Source of the DNA: a virus
DNA length: 64,000 nt
Virus record (IMG/VR): IMGVR_UViG_3300033388_002987
Span: 1 to 64,000 of that record
Strand: one strand, 5' to 3'
The notes beneath the pieces are model-generated. The model saw only the letters and a program-made list of their open reading frames with translations. It was not told where the DNA came from and searched no databases. This document shows, in pieces, positions 588 to 37,147 of the stretch. How positions within the stretch are numbered: position 1 is the stretch's first letter; every line of letters begins with the position of its first letter. The position numbers and the translations under genes are program-made.

Positions 588-2287
588 TATACTGGTTCTC
601 CTGTAAGTAATAATCCGGTAACACTAGCCACTAAAGTGTCTAGGTTTACATCTTGTGTTGCTGTTATATGTTGTAATGTTACTAGCTCTGCATTAGTTAA
701 GTGGTTATGCTCACCAGGAGCTCCACCAGTAATTCCGGATAAATTCTCATGATCTCCAGTACCACCACTGCTAAATGTATTTAAGGATGCATCTGTATTA
801 TCTATCTTAATGATAACTGCCCCACCTTCTTGTGTAATAACTCTACCAAGTAGAACACCATGTCCTGCTAAAGATGCTGGGAGTGTTGGAGGCAGATCAT
901 CTAAAGCCTCAGCCTCAGTTGCAAACTCAGCTGTACCATATATACCTACAATCTCAGCAGCCTCACCAACTCTAAAGTAAATCCAAGATATTGTAAACCA
1001 CCCAACAGTTAATGCGATTAAATCTGTACCATTATCATACTGGGTATTGTTAATTGCTGTAAGAGTACCCGTCGTAAGTACACCACTAACATTCCTATAA
1101 AAAGGCATAACAGTGGCTGAGTTCCATGCTGCACCACCATACTCTTTTAATTGAAAGAAGTAACTTGGAGCAGATACATCTATCTCAAGACCAGTACCTG
1201 CTGAAATAATCCCACCGCCTTTACGAATAAATGGGCTAGTGTAGAACTCTCTAACTTGCTCCTTACCAGTTCTATTTACATTTTGTGCCCTAATATCAAT
1301 AATTGATAATGTATTACCTTCTCTAGTAATAGAGTATGCCGCAACTTTATCTCTCATGTTAACAATAGCTGGAGTAGTAGTAGCTGCCCATGTAATAGTT
1401 ACACCATCATTATAATCTATATATATAGTGCTAGTAGCATTATCCGATACAGCTAATGCAGTTGCAGTAGGTACCTCGGCTACAAATAACTCACCATTAC
1501 CCTCAGTATCTGTATTAGCCCTAATAAATGCTTCACCTGTAGTAATGTCAACTGTACCATCCAAATTATCAGTAAGCGCACAGCCAACCATGATACCAGA
1601 TGTGTAAGTATGATTATAAACTTCTTTTAAGGTAGGTATTGTAACAGGATTGCCTATAAGGCTTGTATTAGTAACCTCTGCTAATGTAATAGGGTTGTCT
1701 TGCCAAGTAGTTCCATTAAAATATCTAGTCTTATTAAGACTTGTATCGAAGTACATATCACCAGTTACCATAGCATCACCAGAAACTCTGGTAGTAGGCT
1801 CAACAGCAGAAGCTCCGTAGTAAACATCTGCAAAGTTAGTAACATCATTTATATTCGTAGCAATAGTAGTAATAGCATTAATCTCCGCAATAAGAACATC
1901 AAATGCTGCCTTATCTGCGTACAGTGAATCAAGTGTAGCTTTATCAGTATACAAGCTGTCGAGCGTAGCTTTATCAGCAAAGATTGAATCCAGTACACTC
2001 TTAGAATTATATATAGATTGTAACTGAACTCTATCATTGTAGATACTACCTAGTTCAACCGTCATTGCACCAAGTGCAGCCAGTTCATCCGTCATTGGGA
2101 TTAGTGGCCCTGATAGATTATACATTTCTTTAATAGATCCGTATATACCAGCTCCAAGCCTTACTGTCTCATTATCTTCGTCTGTTAGTTTAGCAATAAT
2201 ATCAAAGTATATACCATCTGTATACTCTGCTTCAGGTGCCCCTGTCCCACGTATTTCTCTAAGTACTTTTAGTAAGTCACTAGCCAT
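587..2287 (-). CDS. virion structural/tail protein, 566 aa
   Basis: T/G/A-rich; YFDTSLNKTRYFNGTTWQ tail-fibre-like motif; lies in the late operon. Confidence 0.6.
   Translation of the reverse strand: MASDLLKVLREIRGTGAPEAEYTDGIYFDIIAKLTDEDNETVRLGAGIYGSIKEMYNLSGPLIPMTDELAALGAMTVELGSIYNDRVQLQSIYNSKSVLDSIFADKATLDSLYTDKATLDSLYADKAAFDVLIAEINAITTIATNINDVTNFADVYYGASAVEPTTRVSGDAMVTGDMYFDTSLNKTRYFNGTTWQDNPITLAEVTNTSLIGNPVTIPTLKEVYNHTYTSGIMVGCALTDNLDGTVDITTGEAFIRANTDTEGNGELFVAEVPTATALAVSDNATSTIYIDYNDGVTITWAATTTPAIVNMRDKVAAYSITREGNTLSIIDIRAQNVNRTGKEQVREFYTSPFIRKGGGIISAGTGLEIDVSAPSYFFQLKEYGGAAWNSATVMPFYRNVSGVLTTGTLTAINNTQYDNGTDLIALTVGWFTISWIYFRVGEAAEIVGIYGTAEFATEAEALDDLPPTLPASLAGHGVLLGRVITQEGGAVIIKIDNTDASLNTFSSGGTGDHENLSGITGGAPGEHNHLTNAELVTLQHITATQDVNLDTLVASVTGLLLTGEPV
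1901..2020 (-). repeat. 30-bp (10-aa) tandem repeat within structural gene
   Basis: Protein LDSIFADKAT-LDSLYTDKAT-LDSLYADKAA; TAGCTTTATC recurs at 1936 and 1966. Confidence 0.85.
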
Positions 2288-2295
2288 CTAATCTC

Positions 2296-2742
2296 CTATG
2301 CTCTTGTTAATGTTTTATTCCACTTATGATTTTCATCATAACTGCGTTCTACTGTTGGATGGTCTAGTTCTTGTATTTCATCTACTAACCATTTGTCAAG
2401 TTTTAATATAGCAACTAGTAAATCTCCACTCTTAGAAGTACCGTCAACCCACTCATTATAATCTGTATAAAACTGTAACTCTACTTTACCAAAATTTGAT
2501 ACACCATCTTCAATATCACCACTTAACTGCTTACGCATCTCAGTTAAGAAGTGATACGTTATAAACATATCAAAACCATCAGTATTATATTCTTTATAAA
2601 AAGGACTACTCTCTTTGAATAAGTCCTTTGCACCATAAACAGCTGCAGTCTGTATTGATATAACATTCTCTAGGTCACCATACCTAGAAACTGGTTTTAG
2701 TGTACCTCCACCAAGCGCTCCGGCAACGGTCATAGTGTCCAC
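2296..2742 (-). CDS. hypothetical late protein
   Basis: 148-aa ORF with AGGAG RBS, tightly packed in the operon. Confidence 0.6.
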   Translation of the reverse strand: MDTMTVAGALGGGTLKPVSRYGDLENVISIQTAAVYGAKDLFKESSPFYKEYNTDGFDMFITYHFLTEMRKQLSGDIEDGVSNFGKVELQFYTDYNEWVDGTSKSGDLLVAILKLDKWLVDEIQELDHPTVERSYDENHKWNKTLTRA

Positions 2743-3182
2743 TCAGTAGAACCAGGGTTATAATCAAGATCTCTAATACCAGCCTCGTCAGCTTCCAACT
2801 CCATTTGTTCAAGTATCTCATAAGTCTTAGCATTATAGTCAAGTATAATTCTATCAGCGGCTTTAACATGAATACCACCTTTTTCACTACTAATGTAGCT
2901 AGCTAAATATCTTGCAACTGCAGGTACTAGCTCTTCGTCAATATCAATCTCATCAATGTCATCTTCTGGGAGTATAGGATTACGTATAAGGTAGTCACCT
3001 TGCGATAGTCTAAGAATATCAGCTGTGGTACTAAGTGTCATTAAATGCAGAGAGTCTGCTTTTGTAGCTACTGTAGTAAGTGCATATTTTAAAAGCCCTA
3101 ACAATACATCAGGATCTGCTGGTAAAGCGTTGTCACCAGTAAGTAATCCTTTTGTTAGATTCTGCAACATTTCATAAGTCAA
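2730..3182 (-). CDS. putative head-tail adaptor/virion protein
   Basis: TTG start after AAGGA; helical protein near the terminase. Function inferred from position only. Confidence 0.4.
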   Translation of the reverse strand: MTYEMLQNLTKGLLTGDNALPADPDVLLGLLKYALTTVATKADSLHLMTLSTTADILRLSQGDYLIRNPILPEDDIDEIDIDEELVPAVARYLASYISSEKGGIHVKAADRIILDYNAKTYEILEQMELEADEAGIRDLDYNPGSTEWTL

Positions 3183-3208
3183 GTCATATCCTTTTAATTA
3201 ATAGTGTA

Positions 3209-3237
3209 ATAATAGTAGGATTCAATTTATTTGTCAA
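3209..3237 (-). promoter_or_regulatory. sigma70-type promoter
   Basis: TTGACA-N17-TATTAT on minus strand upstream of 3182. Confidence 0.7.
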
Positions 3238-3514
3238 CAGGCTTATCAGTAAATTTAGAATTATAAATATCTATCTGCTTTATGTAATACCTCTCTGATT
3301 TCCTTAACATAGTAGCTCCTTGTAGTAGTGTAGGAAGTGACTCACACATTACAGTACCATTAGTATCAGTTATCACAGGTATTGGGGGAACTACTTTAAC
3401 AGTAGCTATAGCAGGACATGTACCTTCTATATAGTAAGGCACTTCAATATACTTGGTGCAGCCACTAATTAATAACACGCTAGTTAGTAGTATTGAAATA
3501 ATTATTTTCTTCAT
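3227..3514 (-). CDS. lipoprotein, o-spanin-like
   Basis: Signal peptide with lipobox LLISG-C; Pro-rich mature region; adjacent to a TM/coiled-coil gene. Confidence 0.55.
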   Translation of the reverse strand: MKKIIISILLTSVLLISGCTKYIEVPYYIEGTCPAIATVKVVPPIPVITDTNGTVMCESLPTLLQGATMLRKSERYYIKQIDIYNSKFTDKPVDK

Positions 3515-14265: not shown

Positions 14266-14595
14266 ATGTCTAAACAATGCTGGCCTAAAAAGCCTATACG
14301 TAACAGGAAAGGTGTATACCTTCTCTATAATAAAGATGAGATAGTTTATGTTGGTAAGTCCCATAAATGTATGGCAAATAGACTAACTGATCACCAACGT
14401 AGTAATAAAGTATTTACTAAAGTGCATGCTTTTATTATAGAAAATGACGCCAATCTAGCAGTTGCTGAAATATACCTAATAGGTAAGTACAAGCCTAAGT
14501 ATAACGAGGAATCCATGACAACCGATGAGCTAACTATACACATAGATAATTTAGATAAAATTATACATGAAGAGGTTATCCTCCGTCCTTACTAG
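14266..14595 (+). CDS. GIY-YIG nuclease-domain protein
   Basis: KGVYLLY...VYVGKS...R...H...E.YLI..YKPKYN. Confidence 0.85.
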   Translation: MSKQCWPKKPIRNRKGVYLLYNKDEIVYVGKSHKCMANRLTDHQRSNKVFTKVHAFIIENDANLAVAEIYLIGKYKPKYNEESMTTDELTIHIDNLDKIIHEEVILRPY

Positions 14596-14966: not shown

Positions 14967-15218
14967 ATGAGCTTCAAAGAAAAACCAACTGCAAAGCAGT
15001 ATAAAATAGTAATGACTTCACCTAATGGTAACACAGTTGCATTTGTAAACCTTACCAAGCAATTCTCAAAGGTAGCTGGTATCACAGAGAATACTACTGC
15101 TGAACAAGTTAATGATATGGTAATAAACAAGCAGACTATGATTGACTACTTGTACACTTTAGACATGTCAATTGAAGAAGTTGAAGAAACTCAACAAGTT
15201 TCTATAGATAATTTCTAA
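14967..15218 (+). CDS. small protein with acidic-Phe C-terminus (paralog family A)
   Basis: Aligns by eye with 16183 and 23257; ends VSIDNF. Confidence 0.65.
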   Translation: MSFKEKPTAKQYKIVMTSPNGNTVAFVNLTKQFSKVAGITENTTAEQVNDMVINKQTMIDYLYTLDMSIEEVEETQQVSIDNF

Positions 15219-15307: not shown

Positions 15308-15751
15308 ATGCCCGAAACTCTATTAAAAATAGCGAGAGAGTACGACTCTGAAGCAGAATTTCGTGAGAAAAACCTGCCAAAGTACTTACTTGCAAAAAAG
15401 AAGATGTTATTAAGACAAGCTTTTCCAGAGCAAGTAGTAAACCCTAAAAATGACATAAAGGGAATTTACTACCTCTACAAAGGTAACAAAGTTGTCTACA
15501 TTGCTCAATCAGTAAACTGCTTAGAAGCAATTAACACACATACCGAAGATACTATGACATTCGATAGCTACCGTATCTTCCAACCATCAAGTGACTCAGA
15601 CCGTGCGGTCTTAGCACTTTACTTAGCCAACAAGTACCGTCCACGGTACAATACTAATATAGGCATCAATGAATTATCATTTGATATACCTAATGTAAGT
15701 ACTATCCTTGGCAAAGATATAAAAGGAACAATATGTTTAAAAGATTATTAA
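15308..15751 (+). CDS. GIY-YIG protein with one N-terminal DNA-binding repeat
   Basis: KGIYYLY...VYIAQS; conserved Arg and Glu appear replaced (possibly inactive). Confidence 0.7.
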   Translation: MPETLLKIAREYDSEAEFREKNLPKYLLAKKKMLLRQAFPEQVVNPKNDIKGIYYLYKGNKVVYIAQSVNCLEAINTHTEDTMTFDSYRIFQPSSDSDRAVLALYLANKYRPRYNTNIGINELSFDIPNVSTILGKDIKGTICLKDY

Positions 15752-16182
15752 TAACCGCCCTATTTATTCCAGCCATAACGGCATGCATTATAGGAATTAT
15801 ACTAAGCATGATGTTATGCCCATTAACTTATATACTACTCAATATATCACTTGATGAGCTTTTAGAAGAAGTAGTGAGTCATACATTAGAACCAGTGATG
15901 GAACTATAATGGCCATCATAAGAACATACAATAGTAAGACAGGCAGATATGAAGTAGACAGGCCTAAGTTTATCTTTACCAACGCTCAGGCACAAGTACT
16001 AGCCTCTCAAGTAGCTAAACTATCTAAACGAGTTGCTACTCTTGAAAAAACTAGCCATACTCATTAACTTTTACTAAAGCTATGAAATAGCAAAGGCACT
16101 CTCAGAGTGTCTTATGGTGTCTCATCAGTCGCTTAAGTCAGCTCACACAACCAACCCACCATTCCGTAGGAGGAAACAACCC

Positions 16183-16437
16183 ATGTCATTCGAAACTAAC
16201 AAATCAAACAAGAACAAAGCTCAATTCACAGCAAGACTAGTATCAAAAGTATCAGGTAAGGCATTCGGCTTCTTCAACCCAACTCCAGAGTTCTGTCGTG
16301 CAGTTATGGGTAAAGATATTACTGAAGTAACTGCTGAAGAACTTATTGTTAAGACTATCTCACTATTACAGCAGTCAGAACTTGTTATCACAGATACTAC
16401 CGTACCATTAGAAGTAGTCTCTCCAGACGCGTTCTAA
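16183..16437 (+). CDS. paralog family A protein
   Basis: ATG 16183 after TCCGTAGGAGGA; QFTARLVSK; ends SPDAF. Confidence 0.7.
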   Translation: MSFETNKSNKNKAQFTARLVSKVSGKAFGFFNPTPEFCRAVMGKDITEVTAEELIVKTISLLQQSELVITDTTVPLEVVSPDAF

Positions 16438-16520
16438 TGTTGCCTATTAAGATACCAGACGCTCCACTAGCTTTAGCAGTACTAGCAATACTACTTTACT
16501 TACTAATACAAGGGAAATAA

Positions 16521-17114
16521 ATGTACTCAACTCAATTACTTACAGAAGCAACCCTAGGTAAGCACAACATAACGGACTGGGTCCGTGATGAAATAGCTTC
16601 AATCAGACAAGAAGATATAGACTCAGCCCTTAATAGAGCTCAGTTATTCCTTACAAAAGAACGCTCAGATCTTGAACAAAAAGGCCGTGTAGAAGAGCTA
16701 CTGCTAATATATGGATTACAAGACGCGTGCCAACTTATAGTAGATTCTCTACTAAAAGCAGTAATACTTATCAAGCCAGACTTATTAATGCGTGGAGGTA
16801 AAGAAGTAGCCTTTCCAGGTGTTGCACCTATACAAGCTATTGCTACACAAATAGGCCTTGCACTACACCACGACCAAATAGACGCAGTACAAACAGGCAT
16901 CGAAATCCTCTCCGAGTTTAACGACATGGGTATCTTCGAAGTTCGTGTCGTAAAAGAGGCAGACCGTGCCGTTAACCAAAATGGCCATGTAGAAGTTCAT
17001 GGAGACTCAGCAGTAGTAATACCAAGTATGAGAATCTCAGTAGAGTTATATAGTAAGATTAATGCAACTCAATATCTACCACCAATGCTTGTAAAGCCGT
17101 TGGATTATACTTAA
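16521..17114 (+). CDS. RNA polymerase II fragment 1 (N4 gp15 N-terminal part)
   Basis: IATQIG..DAVQTGIEIL and YLPPMLVKP match the N4-type RNAP small-subunit pattern. Confidence 0.75.
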   Translation: MYSTQLLTEATLGKHNITDWVRDEIASIRQEDIDSALNRAQLFLTKERSDLEQKGRVEELLLIYGLQDACQLIVDSLLKAVILIKPDLLMRGGKEVAFPGVAPIQAIATQIGLALHHDQIDAVQTGIEILSEFNDMGIFEVRVVKEADRAVNQNGHVEVHGDSAVVIPSMRISVELYSKINATQYLPPMLVKPLDYT

Positions 17115-17122
17115 GGATTAAC

Positions 17123-17938
17123 ATGAGCAAAAGAGTAACTAGCCACCTATTAACGAAAGATATCGACTCTTTAATACTAGGCCGTGGTAATGACATAGGT
17201 CAACACATCAACAAGAACGCTATCAATAGACTACAATCAGTCCCTTGGTCTATCAATGAAGAAATCCTACCATTCCTTCACGATACTCTTAAGCCATCAG
17301 AGGAAACTCTAACAGTATTCGAAACCACTGAACGCCTAAAGGCGTACAAGCTTCGTGACAAAGAGACAGACAATACCATTGACTACCTCTTAGAAAATGG
17401 TAACCAGTTTTACTTCGGCTGGAAATTTGATAAAAGAGGGAGGCAATATTCTCAAGGCTACCACATCAACCCACAAGGGAACGAATATCGCAAAGCAATG
17501 TTATCCTTTGCTAACAAGAAACTACTTACAGTAGAAGGCATGGGATACCTTAAAATAGACATCGCAAACTGCATGGGCTATGACAAGCTCACTTGGTTCG
17601 CTCGTAAAATGAAAGCAGGTGCTATCATTGCAGATGTTTTCAAAGACGGTCGCTCAACAGACCGTAAAATCCGTGAGTATTCAGAACAAGCTGATACTCC
17701 TCTACTCTTCATCAAAGCTATGTACGCTTGGAAAGAGGGAGTTATCAACGGCAACCCTATAGGACACAATATGGGTCTAGATTCGACGGCATCGGGTTTA
17801 CAGTACCTTAGTGCATTAAGCGGTTGCTGTGTAACTGCTCGTCATGCGAATGTACACGCCTTAATTGAGAGAACTTATACGGAAGAAGCGCAGAATCGTT
17901 TAGAGGAGTTAGAGGCAGAACTAAAACTTCTAGATTAA
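17123..17938 (+). CDS. RNA polymerase II fragment 2 (DxxGR and motif A)
   Basis: DKRGRQYSQGYHINPQG; YLKIDIAN; LDSTASGLQ (catalytic motif A). Confidence 0.92.
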   Translation: MSKRVTSHLLTKDIDSLILGRGNDIGQHINKNAINRLQSVPWSINEEILPFLHDTLKPSEETLTVFETTERLKAYKLRDKETDNTIDYLLENGNQFYFGWKFDKRGRQYSQGYHINPQGNEYRKAMLSFANKKLLTVEGMGYLKIDIANCMGYDKLTWFARKMKAGAIIADVFKDGRSTDRKIREYSEQADTPLLFIKAMYAWKEGVINGNPIGHNMGLDSTASGLQYLSALSGCCVTARHANVHALIERTYTEEAQNRLEELEAELKLLD

Positions 17939-18061
17939 ATCTCTGGGCAACTTTTTGCACACAACTTTCAGAATTTAGGCCTTTCAAATCCCTATAAATA
18001 GGCATTCACTTTTCAGAGAGTTCTCTGGAGTTTACGTCAGTTAAATAATGTAGGTACCTAA

Positions 18062-18092
18062 TAAGGCATATTTAAGGTACTTACTGTATACT
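18062..18092 (+). promoter_or_regulatory. promoter of endonuclease gene
   Basis: TAAGG..TTAAGG..TG-TATACT, then AAGGAG RBS. Confidence 0.5.
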
Positions 18093-18125
18093 ACCACATT
18101 CAAACAGACACAAAAAGGAGAGTAC

Positions 18126-18881
18126 ATGGCAAAACTAATATGGACAGAGGATAGTATAAGGGTAGAAGCCTTAAAATATTCTACATTTGTAGAATTTAAT
18201 AAAGGGGCTCCAGGAGCATATAGGAAAGCTCAGCGAGATAAGTCTATTAAGAGGCTAGCACCACATTTAGTAGCTTCTACATGTATAAAGTACACAGATA
18301 CTGATATACATAATGTAGCCCTAAAGTTCAAGACTAAGAAAGAGTTTGAACTGGCAGAATCATCTATTTATAGTATTATGCACCAACGTAAAATAGTGGC
18401 ACAATGTTGTTCCCATATGACTGGACTAACATTATGGAATGAAGAATCAATCCGTGCAGAAGCTCTAAAATATACAACTCGTAAAGATTTTAAAGCCAAC
18501 GGTAAAGGAGCTGTAGGAGCATCCGTACAACTTGGTATATATGATGAAATTTGTGCACATATGAAGGCTAAGCCAAAAGCATTAGCTCCTTCTAACTTAA
18601 AAGGTATATATTTATTGTATAAAGATACAAATATAGTATATGTAGGTAAATCAAATTGCTGTATGCTTAGTCGTATACGCTCACATAAACAGGATAAGGA
18701 GTTTAATACAGTTGAATTTTATGAAATTGCAAATCAACCAGACATAGATGTTATAGAGTTATACCTTATTAACTTATACAGCCCTATACACAATAAGGAA
18801 TCTAATAGTAATGGTATTCTAACTGTAACTATAGATAATATAGATAATGTAGTCACTAAGAAAAGTGTCTACGAGATATAA
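18126..18881 (+). mobile_element. free-standing GIY-YIG homing endonuclease with three N-terminal ~45-aa repeats
   Basis: Repeats W..ESIR.EALKY.T..EF...H[ML]; C-terminal KGIYLLY..YVGKS..R..H..E..N. Confidence 0.85.
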
Positions 18882-18896
18882 TCCGTAGGAGGAATC

Positions 18897-19646
18897 ATGA
18901 AAAGAACTAAATCACAAATACTAGCAGAAATACGCCTACTAAAGGCTAACACAGACAATTACTCTGAAACAGTAGTCCGTGCCGACCCTTACAAACTAGT
19001 TGCAGACCGTATGCTTGAAAAGCTACCAGACTGTGAAATCTTCCACGGCATGACGCCTAAACAAGTACGCTCATACTGCAAAGACCCAGTTATGACTTAC
19101 TTCTATAACTCACGCGCCGAGCCTGTTAAGGCATTCGGCGAAGATACGCCAGAACTACACGCCTTCTATGACACTCTCCAAGAACTGTTCCCAGGCGCAG
19201 TAAACGTTATGGAAGCTCTCAACGACCGTTGGGATAGCTCAGCTATGTTCCACGAACACCCCTTACCAGACGGCCACATATCCCATGTAAAAGTAATGGA
19301 AGATATCGACGGCATCCTTACCAACGAAGGTCTCAACCTTCCTTATCGCTTCAAGAAGAACCAGCCATCAGAAAATGGTACACCACTCCCAGCTAACTTC
19401 ACTCACGCCTTCGACGGCTTCGGCCCTCGCCACATAGCCACTAACGTAGACTTCGACTTCGCTCACATCCACGATGAGTTCCAAGCTCACCCTAACGATA
19501 TGGGTGCAGTACGCACTCAGTTCGTAGACTCACTTCGTATAATAGCTCAAGGCAACTACCTTGAAGACTTCTGCGAGAAAGACTTCGGCATAGAACACAC
19601 AGCATTCCTAGAGGGACTTGACTCGTCAAGTTACGCAATATGTTAG
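18897..19646 (+). CDS. RNA polymerase II fragment 3 (motifs B and C)
   Basis: RADPY; RSYCKDPVMTYFYNS (motif B); ANFTHAFDG; HIHDEF (motif C); own AGGAGG RBS. Confidence 0.92.
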   Translation: MKRTKSQILAEIRLLKANTDNYSETVVRADPYKLVADRMLEKLPDCEIFHGMTPKQVRSYCKDPVMTYFYNSRAEPVKAFGEDTPELHAFYDTLQELFPGAVNVMEALNDRWDSSAMFHEHPLPDGHISHVKVMEDIDGILTNEGLNLPYRFKKNQPSENGTPLPANFTHAFDGFGPRHIATNVDFDFAHIHDEFQAHPNDMGAVRTQFVDSLRIIAQGNYLEDFCEKDFGIEHTAFLEGLDSSSYAIC

Positions 19647-19798
19647 TAACAATAGTGTTCTTCGATGACGGCTATGGTAAAGCTATCGCCGAAGTATTCG
19701 GCTCAGTAGAAAAAGCGGAAGAGTATGTTGAAGAACATAACTCAGGACCTAATGACTGGCACTACTTTGCCGAGTCATTTGCACTTAAATAAGGAACA

Positions 19799-20045
19799 AT
19801 AGACACAACTATTCTACCAAAAAGCACTTATAACAAGTGCTAACCTATCAACTAGAGCGTCTAACAACAAAGCAGTAAGACGCAGACTTATGCGTAAACT
19901 ATGTACAGACCTTAACTTCAAAGCAGATACTTGGGAGTTATCGAATAAGCACTCAGTACTACTCCAACTAGCAATAGCCAGAGTTGCTTTCGGTTCATTA
20001 ACCCTCAAACAAAAAGAGTATGCTTCAAAATTACTCAACTACTAG
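19799..20045 (+). pseudogene. 80-aa ORF with disrupted start (ATAG instead of ATG)
   Basis: AAGGA RBS, then ATAG-ACA-CAA...; frame open to TAG at 20045. Either a mutation or a consensus error. Confidence 0.5.
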
Positions 20046-20073
20046 TACCTTCGGGTACTACCTCTTTTTTTTT
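20043..20073 (+). terminator. rho-independent terminator
   Basis: TAGTACC-TTCG-GGTACTA followed by T9. Confidence 0.85.
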
Positions 20074-20308
20074 CCGCCTAGTTCATTGCTTAACGCTCCG
20101 TCCCGCGGGGACTCCACTACAATGCCATCATCTATTTATATCCGCTACCGCTCGGGTCTCTGCTGAGAGCTCTCTTGAAAACATCCTGATTTATTAAACG
20201 GAAATAACTTCTGTTACCTTCATAATCCTCTTAAACATTTGGATAAATGAAACGGAAAATCTTCTATAACTTTTTAAAGTTGAAGAAGGAAAAACAAAGG
20301 AAAAATAA

Positions 20309-20503
20309 ATGAAATTTGTAATATTAACTACACTTACATTACTAACGATAACTGGGTGTAGTAATGAAATGACTACAAAAGAAATAGTGGCTGCTATTAA
20401 AGAATGTAAAGATAACAACTTAACAGTTTATAGCTTCAGGAATGGGTTTAGTAGGGCTGGCTCTACCACTGTAATATTTTGTCAAATAAAGGAAACTAAA
20501 TGA
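20309..20503 (+). CDS. small lipoprotein
   Basis: Signal peptide with LTITG-C lipobox. Confidence 0.65.
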   Translation: MKFVILTTLTLLTITGCSNEMTTKEIVAAIKECKDNNLTVYSFRNGFSRAGSTTVIFCQIKETK

Positions 20504-21300: not shown

Positions 21301-21759
21301 ATGATTGAAATACTATCAACATTATTAAAAATAATAATTGGGCTAGCAAAGCTACCATTCTTATTTCTTATAGCAATACTAGAGATAATAACAGGTAAAA
21401 ATATAATACCGAATGAGGAGATATATAACCACGATACACTTATTACTGCTCAAAAACGTACAGAACAATCATGGGAGATTGCTTCAAAAGTAGAGACAGT
21501 GGACTACAACATATATATAAACTCGCCTGCCTGGAAATATAGTGCAGCACGACTTGCTGCTATCACTAGAGATAACAGAGAATGTTCTATGTGTAGTGAT
21601 AAAAATTCTTTAGAAGTACATCATACAACTTATGAGCGATTAGGAAATGAATTAATAACAGACCTCATAACATTATGTAAAGACTGTCATATACATACAC
21701 ATAAAATAGCTGGCAAAGGTGCCAGCACCTATCCACCAATCAAACATCCGGAGAAATAA
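21301..21759 (+). CDS. HNH endonuclease with N-terminal hydrophobic segment
   Basis: CSMC..LEVHHTTY..LITLCKDCH. Confidence 0.8.
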   Translation: MIEILSTLLKIIIGLAKLPFLFLIAILEIITGKNIIPNEEIYNHDTLITAQKRTEQSWEIASKVETVDYNIYINSPAWKYSAARLAAITRDNRECSMCSDKNSLEVHHTTYERLGNELITDLITLCKDCHIHTHKIAGKGASTYPPIKHPEK

Positions 21760-36643: not shown

Positions 36644-36884
36644 ATCAAGCCCTTGGTACCCCAATAGAGAACTGACCTATGGTCAGATCTACCACTTCAT
36701 ACGTGCCAAGACCTACAACTTATCACCATTCGACAAAGACTCAATCCAAGAAGCTAAAAAGCTAACACTAATGGAAGCACGTGATGCTTCTCCAAACTAC
36801 AAGATGTTCCTTAAAGCCGCTGTACTTGCTACAGGGCTTAGTGAGAGAACTATAAAAGGGATTTTATATAGTTCTGGGCAATAA
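36636..36884 (+). CDS. small protein with possible HTH
   Basis: AVLATGLSERTIKGIL. Confidence 0.5.
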   Translation: MPKSSPWYPNRELTYGQIYHFIRAKTYNLSPFDKDSIQEAKKLTLMEARDASPNYKMFLKAAVLATGLSERTIKGILYSSGQ

Positions 36885-37147
36885 ATTGCACATAAATCAC
36901 AAAGTCAAAATCCTCTATTAGAGGTAGGCTAATTAGCCACTATAAAGATAAAGAATTTGATACAATTTATACTTTAAAGTTTAAGTCTAAAGCAGATATA
37001 GATGTAATGGAGGTATACTTCATTAATAAGTTACAACCAGTTCATAACAAAGACAGTAATAGTAGCACCACATTAACAGTGGAAATAGCTAACATGGGTG
37101 AAGTCATCATCTCAACATTAATACACACTAAATCAAAGGATACATAG
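36852..37147 (+). pseudogene. degenerate GIY-YIG remnant
   Basis: Frame 36896-37147 reads ITKSKSSIRGRLISHYKDKEF...DIDVMEVYFINKLQPVHNKDSNS, closely matching the 18126 C-terminus; upstream KGI...GNK is broken by frameshift/stop. Confidence 0.7.

Follow-up and report, generated by a model that had tools for sequence, protein, structure and literature searches.

A T7-like RNA polymerase encoded in three pieces, with breaks distinct from that of N4, in a clade of uncultured phages

Introduction

The RNA polymerase II (RNAPII) of phage N4 is a heterodimer of gp15 and gp16 (PDB 6DT7; Willis et al. 2002, as summarized in PMC4496689). Its gp16 subunit carries motifs A, B and C, and the enzyme transcribes the middle genes from single-stranded templates with the help of the cofactors gp1 and gp2 (PMC4496689). 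A 2015 review counted 24 heterodimers among >500 homologues. T7 RNA polymerase (RNAP) has been engineered to work as three to four co-expressed fragments, and antiparallel leucine zippers raised its activity >10-fold when it was split at residue 601 (Segall-Shapiro et al. 2014, PMC4299498). HNH genes split gp24, the DNA polymerase gene and gp43 of two N4-like Vibrio phages, JA1 and VchO139-I (PMC3670811). Here we describe an RNAPII-type gene that lies in three pieces at 16.5–19.7 kb of IMG/VR record IMGVR_UViG_3300033388_002987, a virus record of 117,954 bp that has direct terminal repeats and comes from an uncultured N4-like phage; the window analysed is its first 64 kb (64,000 nucleotides).

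A note made earlier from the letters of this DNA (hereafter the original prediction) proposed a heterotrimeric enzyme of the single-subunit RNAP family that had been split independently of N4. We consider it highly probable (about 85%) that the three pieces are made as separate chains that assemble non-covalently into one enzyme, the sole RNAPII-type polymerase of this genome.

Results

An RNAPII gene in three open reading frames

Four open reading frames (ORFs) occupy the region, all on the plus strand, as are the other features of the locus given below: F1 (16521–17114, 197 aa), F2 (17123–17938, 271 aa), an ORF of 251 aa and F3 (18897–19646, 249 aa). F1 is an N-terminal-domain piece equivalent to T7 ~1–279 and N4 gp15 ~1–134. 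F2 contains the remainder of the N-terminal domain, the thumb, the DKRGR motif (residues 103–107; 17429–17443) and motif A, LDSTASGLQ (residues 219–227; 17777–17803), with the first catalytic Asp. F3 comprises the fingers, motif B (residues 58–72; 19068–19112), specificity-loop-like beta hairpins, motif C, HIHDEF, with the second catalytic Asp (residues 190–195; 19464–19481), and a C-terminal YAIC.

Each piece has its own Shine-Dalgarno (SD) site and ATG. F1 ends in ...YLPPMLVKPLDYT, with PLDYT as the last residues before its TAA stop. The SD site of F2 is read as AAGGA at 17113–17117, overlapping the F1 stop codon within the 8-nt spacer of break 1, and the ATG follows 5 nt after it. The start context of F3 is AGGAGG-aatc-ATG.

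Profile searches relate all three pieces to N4 RNAPII. F1 matches phrog_2166, 'N4-like RNA polymerase' (E = 7.5e-9, profile positions 19–183), F2 matches both phrog_2166 (E = 1e-48) and phrog_2051 (E = 1.9e-21), and F3 matches phrog_2051 (E = 3e-40). The gp15-type phrog_2166 thus covers F1 plus F2 residues 7–244, and the gp16-type phrog_2051 covers F2 residues 138–265 plus F3. Pfam PF00940 matches F2 (E = 7e-8) and nothing else in the 118-kb genome, which makes this the sole RNAPII-type gene there. Against the solved N4 RNAPII structure (PDB 6dt7), F2 spans residues 152–268 of chain A and 6–99 of chain B, and F3 matches chain B (6dt7_B, E = 1e-21); the PDB matches also include T7 and mitochondrial RNAPs. 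In BLASTP comparisons with the N4 proteins taken from EF056009, residues 147–268 of gp15 correspond to F2 16–135, residues 9–99 of gp16 to F2 142–244 and residues 97–384 of gp16 to F3 17–235.

The concatenated pieces were aligned with N4, T7 and two homologues, one a single chain of 576 aa and the other fused. Break 1 falls at T7 ~279, just after VVPPKPW (N4 gp15 ~134), and break 2 at T7 ~561, in the loop after motif A (N4 gp16 ~99). The N4 gp15/gp16 break, at T7 ~452, is continuous in F2 (residues ~135–142; ~17525–17548). All catalytic motifs are intact and in collinear order, aligning to T7 D421–R425, D537, R627/K631/Y639 and D812; the motif B residues of F3 are R58, K62 and Y70, the motif A Asp is F2 D220 (T7 D537) and the motif C Asp is F3 D193 (T7 D812). 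Since the two catalytic Asp residues lie in F2 and F3, the active site is divided between two chains. The enzyme thus has the motifs conserved in the T7-like single-subunit family but is encoded by three ORFs, conserved in relatives, instead of a single polypeptide; likewise, it is homologous to both gp15 and gp16 but is not a heterodimer divided at the gp15/gp16 junction.

These data bear out the gene anatomy given in the original prediction: the end of F1, the AAGGA ribosome-binding site of F2 with DKRGR and motif A downstream of it, and the AGGAGG site of F3 followed by motifs B and C. It had also stated that the second N4 subunit begins near YLxIDIAN and that this junction is fused inside F2. 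N4 gp16 indeed reads YLKIDIAN from residue 9, and BLASTP and the alignment both place YLKIDIAN at F2 residues 142–149. The alignment to N4 gp15/gp16 and T7 RNAP had been suggested as a check, and the break positions at T7 ~279 and ~561 are its outcome.

Both breaks are conserved in related contigs

Scans of viral and metagenomic contigs retrieved ten related contigs with 49–75% amino acid identity. Both breaks are common to the eight with full context (L009, L010, L011, L063, L064, L065, L066 and L067), and break 2 was additionally found in L060 and L062. In all eight, F1 ends in ...YLPPML(V/I)(K/Q)P... and F2 restarts with M-K-x-R-V-x-S-H-L-L-T behind an SD site; in all ten, F2 ends in ...LEAELASL and F3 starts with M-(K)-R-T-K-x-Q-I-L, again behind an SD site. 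The spacers are highly variable: −1, 8, 8, 9, 18, 34, 173 and 880 nt at break 1 in the eight relatives, and 1, 8, 8, 14, 14, 15, 17, 208, 251 and 273 nt at break 2 in the ten, compared with 958 nt in the window. Reading frames across the breaks also vary among contigs, and a comparison of the spacers among relatives revealed no shared sequence apart from the SD region. The same breaks with varying spacers and frames therefore rule out a sequencing indel, a conserved frameshift and read-through. An indel at 17100–17125, which the original prediction had named as a possible artefact, is excluded by the eight relatives, which combine the same F1 end and an F2 with its own SD site and ATG with varied spacers and frames.

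The split forms are numerous, with ~38 clusters of F2-type proteins (263–288 aa) and ~35 of F3-type proteins (247–256 aa), and a separate class of N4 gp16-type proteins (411–421 aa) begins at the N4 junction. Pairwise ω ranges from 0.05 to 0.25 for F1, F2 and F3; the comparisons include the unsaturated pair L065/L067. Conservation is highest in F1 (61–75% identical in relatives, ω 0.11–0.25), which is always located directly upstream of F2 and is usually translationally coupled to it. Taken together, the sequence comparisons show that the breaks are real and conserved and that all three pieces are under purifying selection. Megablast with this region as query gave no match in a collection of 50,697 phage records, and no member of the clade was found among the cultured phages there; by tblastn, the best cultured relatives are <40% identical.

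The break positions differ from those of N4-type loci

A 661-position hidden Markov model (HMM) was built from a mixed-architecture alignment and used to score the plus-strand ORFs of all retrieved loci. In its coordinates the clade breaks at ~178/181 and ~425/433, never at 315–318, which is where 79 of the 79 non-identical N4-type loci break; none of the 79 breaks at the clade positions. The claim of non-N4 breakpoints is therefore upheld.

In a small number of N4-type loci, gp16 has a further interruption. Group I introns were detected there in four of them (L042:4952–5217, L047:4445–4702, L054:6399–6666 and L108:791–1052), with scores of 71–91 bits, above the Rfam gathering score, and at two sites, motif A and HMM ~554–579. 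These are therefore spliced genes, not split proteins, and such introns probably explain reports of 'gp16 split into two genes'. No intron match was obtained for L041, which is interrupted at HMM 475.

Trees of the region equivalent to F2 plus F3, rooted on T7-like enzymes, were quick LG+G4 searches with approximate likelihood ratio (SH-aLRT) support only. They recover the three-piece clade as monophyletic (SH-aLRT 100), outside a group of 45 rows (support 96) in which all N4-type heterodimers and some single-chain forms are found. Adding two unpaired proteins alters the tree little. P0002 (461 aa) is a natural F1–F2 fusion that ends in the same acidic tail and falls inside the clade with support 100. 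The sister of the clade (support 98) is P0190 (353 aa), in which neither break 2 nor the insertion there is present. From these placements it follows that break 2 is common to the whole clade and break 1 to all members but one. The simplest reading of these sequence data is that the clade was split independently of N4, as the original prediction supposed; alternatively, since the sister P0190 starts at the N4 position, an N4-type break may have been re-fused in the ancestor of the clade.

Charged helical tails flank break 2

Exactly at break 2 the clade carries ~44 residues that are extra relative to N4, T7, P0007, single-chain homologues and its sister protein P0190. Break 1 has no such additions. 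The first half of this clade-specific insertion is an acidic helical tail at the C terminus of F2 (17855–17935; 27 aa). Across homologues it is ~27 residues long, with the consensus ...YT.EAQ.RL.ELEAELASL, a Leu spacing of 3-4-3 and a mean charge of −3.4 (n = 17). The second half is a basic N-terminal helix of F3 (18897–18950), ~17 residues that read M-K-R-T-K-x-Q-I-L-A-E-I-R-x-L-K; the first 18 aa have a mean charge of +3.75 (n = 36). I12 and R13 of this helix never vary among 34 homologues that are 50–71% identical overall, and conservation reaches at least 90% at R3, K5, I8 and L9.

The sequences suggest that these oppositely charged amphipathic helices may form a short natural zipper tethering F2 to F3. 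Structure was predicted with AlphaFold2 (AF2) for a read-through version of L010, with the last F2 exon and F3 in one frame and the TAA read as Gly; the multiple sequence alignment consisted of F3 rows only, so that the F2 tail had no alignment depth. The F3 core was predicted with a confidence score (pLDDT) of ~90 and the F3 N-terminal helix (residues 63–75) with 66–73. That an acidic/basic heterodimerising mini-zipper evolved at break 2 and holds the two halves of the polymerase active site together, as in engineered split T7 RNAP, is a tentative proposal to which we give somewhat less than an even chance.

A homing-endonuclease cassette occupies the second break

In the window, the gap between F2 and F3 is filled by a cassette at 17939–18881, composed of a 187-nt leader and the 251-aa ORF (18126–18881). 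Its limits are exact: the TAA of F2 is followed by 943 nt that end at the TAA of the endonuclease, and then by a 15-nt spacer, tccgtaggaggaatc (18882–18896), which holds the AGGAGG of F3 and is nearly identical to the entire 15-nt F2/F3 spacer of L010, so that it appears to be the ancestral one. The cassette is absent from the F2/F3 site in all ten relatives, which keep a stop, a spacer and a start there. As the split is kept in these cassette-free relatives, the cassette invaded an already split gene, and did so in this genome only. As in genes split by homing endonucleases, an endonuclease ORF separates the halves and relatives have nothing inserted at the site, but the gene is not continuous where the endonuclease is missing. 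By this comparison the endonuclease is a tenant of break 2, and no role as its cause is implied.

The 251-aa ORF encodes two repeats at the N terminus (phrog_20046) and, at the C terminus, a GIY-YIG domain whose Pfam match (E = 1.3e-3) is below the family cut-off; the domain is 43% identical to a paralogue at 14266–14595 that passes it. The genome contains four copies of the domain, one of them decayed, and homologues are also multi-copy in large Vibrio and Burkholderia phages. Besides the copy at 14266–14595, the window has copies at 15308–15751 (35% identity), syntenic with an ORF in L003, and at 36845–37114 (38%), with two stops. Promoter and terminator scans and RNA folding of the 187-nt leader gave nothing above chance.

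At or near both breaks the clade has a cluster of introns, endonucleases (HNH and GIY-YIG), small ORFs and one relic gene fragment. The most invaded relative, L066:1164–3683 (Ga0256826_1005777), carries an HNH-AP2 endonuclease ORF (251 aa) at break 1, another ORF of 87 aa at break 2 and, just after DKRGR...SQG in F2, a group I intron of 78 bits. In L009 a 51-aa ORF sits at break 1. L006:4409–4715 (= L010, L059; IMGVR_UViG_3300026512_000006) is an ORF-less group I intron in motif A of the F2 homologue, between DATASG and LQ (RF00028, 69.3 bits, E = 2.8e-16). Within the 251-nt break-2 spacer of L011 (5977–6186; JFJP01037018.1 / IMGVR_UViG_3300002026_000029) there is a 67-aa relic of the motif-C region (HMM 574–615), distinct from the resident F3, which looks like the leftover of a past recombination or gene replacement. 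We infer that the breaks were originally created by mobile elements.

Neighbouring genes and the virion polymerase

A conserved protein of ~85–107 aa with the motif ...NKNQF.A..VS.K.GK... is always encoded directly 5′ of F1, with a paralogue a little further upstream (window 16114–16437 and 14967–15218; L003:2941–3201 and 2074–2331; L006:2883–3143 and 2067–2321; L066:250–522). A PHROG search with it gave no match; it could be a candidate polymerase cofactor. On the other side, a 152-aa ORF at 21301–21759 with a C-terminal HNH motif (C..C...HH...C..CH), conserved in L003:7961–8362, is a further nuclease-like gene near the polymerase cluster.

The same genome encodes a giant virion RNAP, with phrog_2206 matching two adjacent ORFs (E = 2e-109 and 5e-99). 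This N4 gp50-type polymerase is also in pieces and lies outside the window, on the minus strand (G000:82439–92574; L007:440–10575). Its ORFs, of 1942 aa and 1432 aa and 8 nt apart, correspond to phrog_2206 785–2268 and 2254–3379. A 1137-aa ORF upstream (G000:92762–96175) has no PHROG match and may be the N-terminal third of the virion RNAP.

Discussion

Our analysis points to an RNAPII made as three chains. In such an enzyme F1 would be the N-terminal-domain piece, F2 would provide the thumb, DxxGR and motif A, and F3 the fingers and motifs B and C. With one metal-binding Asp on F2 (D220) and the other on F3 (D193), no piece should be active alone. F2 would be translationally coupled to F1, because its SD site overlaps the F1 stop codon, and F3 would be translated from its own strong SD site. 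The breaks at T7 ~279 and ~561 are old, fixed in a clade of uncultured phages and distinct from the N4 break, and the GIY-YIG cassette is a later, genome-specific entry into an existing intergenic spacer. Several points weigh against this picture. The heterotrimeric assembly of the enzyme, its activity and the roles of the tails are inferred from sequence. All of the relatives are metagenomic contigs, and AF2 gave the tail helices (residues 28–51 and 63–75) a pLDDT of only 44–73. By BLASTP, F1 resembles N4 gp15 weakly (E = 0.01); its homology is called on the PHROG profile, its collinearity and the fused homologue P0002.

The place of F1 leads to the explanation that we regard as unlikely, yet less so than the others: that the polymerase consists of F2 and F3 alone, with F1 as a dissociable factor acting, for example, in template recruitment or regulation. 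F1 is the least N4-like part, break 1 has no added tails, and N4 RNAPII itself depends on cofactors and has an N-terminal domain that is already truncated (PMC4496689). Such a factor would not be expected to be the most conserved piece, directly upstream of F2 in every case and usually coupled to it, nor to be fused to F2 in P0002, and the segment in which break 1 falls is unbroken in T7, in N4 and in single-chain forms. It is very improbable that the pieces are instead joined at expression, by frameshift or bypass at break 1 or, at break 2, by read-through, an intron or a trans-splicing intein. In favour of joining, the RNAPII gene family often carries group I introns, and the −1 frame is open across the F1/F2 junction, as had been pointed out earlier: the F2 frame is open for 20 codons 5′ of its ATG, overlapping the F1 end, and contains no other start codon there. 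Against frameshifting, no slippery heptamer is visible at 17063–17114, and the break-1 spacers of the relatives, from −1 to 880 nt, occur in any frame and sometimes with another ORF; comparison with the relatives thus rules out the frameshift reading.

At break 2 the spacer is just 1–17 nt in seven of the ten relatives. No Rfam intron was found in the region at E ≤ 10, and the absence of an RF00028 match in 16000–20500, even at that threshold, rules out a group I intron in the F2/F3 gap; the same model scores 69–91 bits in L006, L066, L042, L047, L054 and L108. A split intein is ruled out as well, since the ~44 extra residues are far short of a HINT fold (~130 aa), the intein/Hint Pfam domains gave no match and there is no conservation of the Asn that would precede a +1 residue. 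Least credible of all is an artefact or a decaying pseudogene, with the stops being assembly errors or signs of a polymerase that is being lost. The window comes from a single metagenome-assembled genome whose virion RNAP is likewise in pieces, but 10 independent contigs and, for each piece, ~35 protein clusters have the same breaks, ω is low, the catalytic motifs are intact and the SD sites conserved, and this is the only RNAPII-type gene in the genome. A non-covalent assembly of three chains accordingly remains our preferred explanation.

If it is correct, the clade would represent a second, independent and well-populated natural architecture for this enzyme, with three chains, different seams and an active site formed in trans, and the existence of a second natural split architecture would indicate a fold that is modular at several of its surface loops. 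The natural split sites and association tags could be used in the design of split or orthogonal RNAPs, and the locus offers an opportunity to study how essential genes withstand being fragmented by mobile elements. Should the zipper prove true, the enzyme may be a regulated, assembly-dependent machine and not merely a selfish-DNA scar; for example, F3 might be a sigma-like fragment that can be exchanged, or F1 might act as a limiting activator. Literature searches on this question found no account of a T7-like RNAP that is naturally divided at these two positions.

The locus can be compared with several kinds of known systems. In endonuclease 'genes in pieces', such as the NrdA gene of Aeromonas phage Aeh1, which is split by mobE, a free-standing endonuclease gene likewise lies between halves of an essential gene that have their own translation signals, but here the GIY-YIG cassette fills a spacer that already existed. 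In engineered split T7 RNAP, motifs A and C are on different fragments at split 601, a position near break 2, and zippers aid assembly (PMC4299498). That enzyme is synthetic, with splits at 67, 179 and 601 and designed SynZIPs, whereas the present one is natural and conserved across a clade, and its zipper is putative. Among the closest counterparts is N4 RNAPII, a small T7-like enzyme of more than one chain that belongs to the same family (phrog_2166 and phrog_2051, 31–41% identity) and occurs in a phage with a giant virion RNAP. Known three-ORF homologues of RNAPII keep the N4 break, while here the N4 junction is continuous. N4 RNAPII is made of two chains cut at T7 ~452, with motifs A, B and C all on gp16; the polymerase described here would consist of three, cut at T7 ~279 and ~561, with motifs A and C on separate chains and a ~44-aa helical insertion at the second break.

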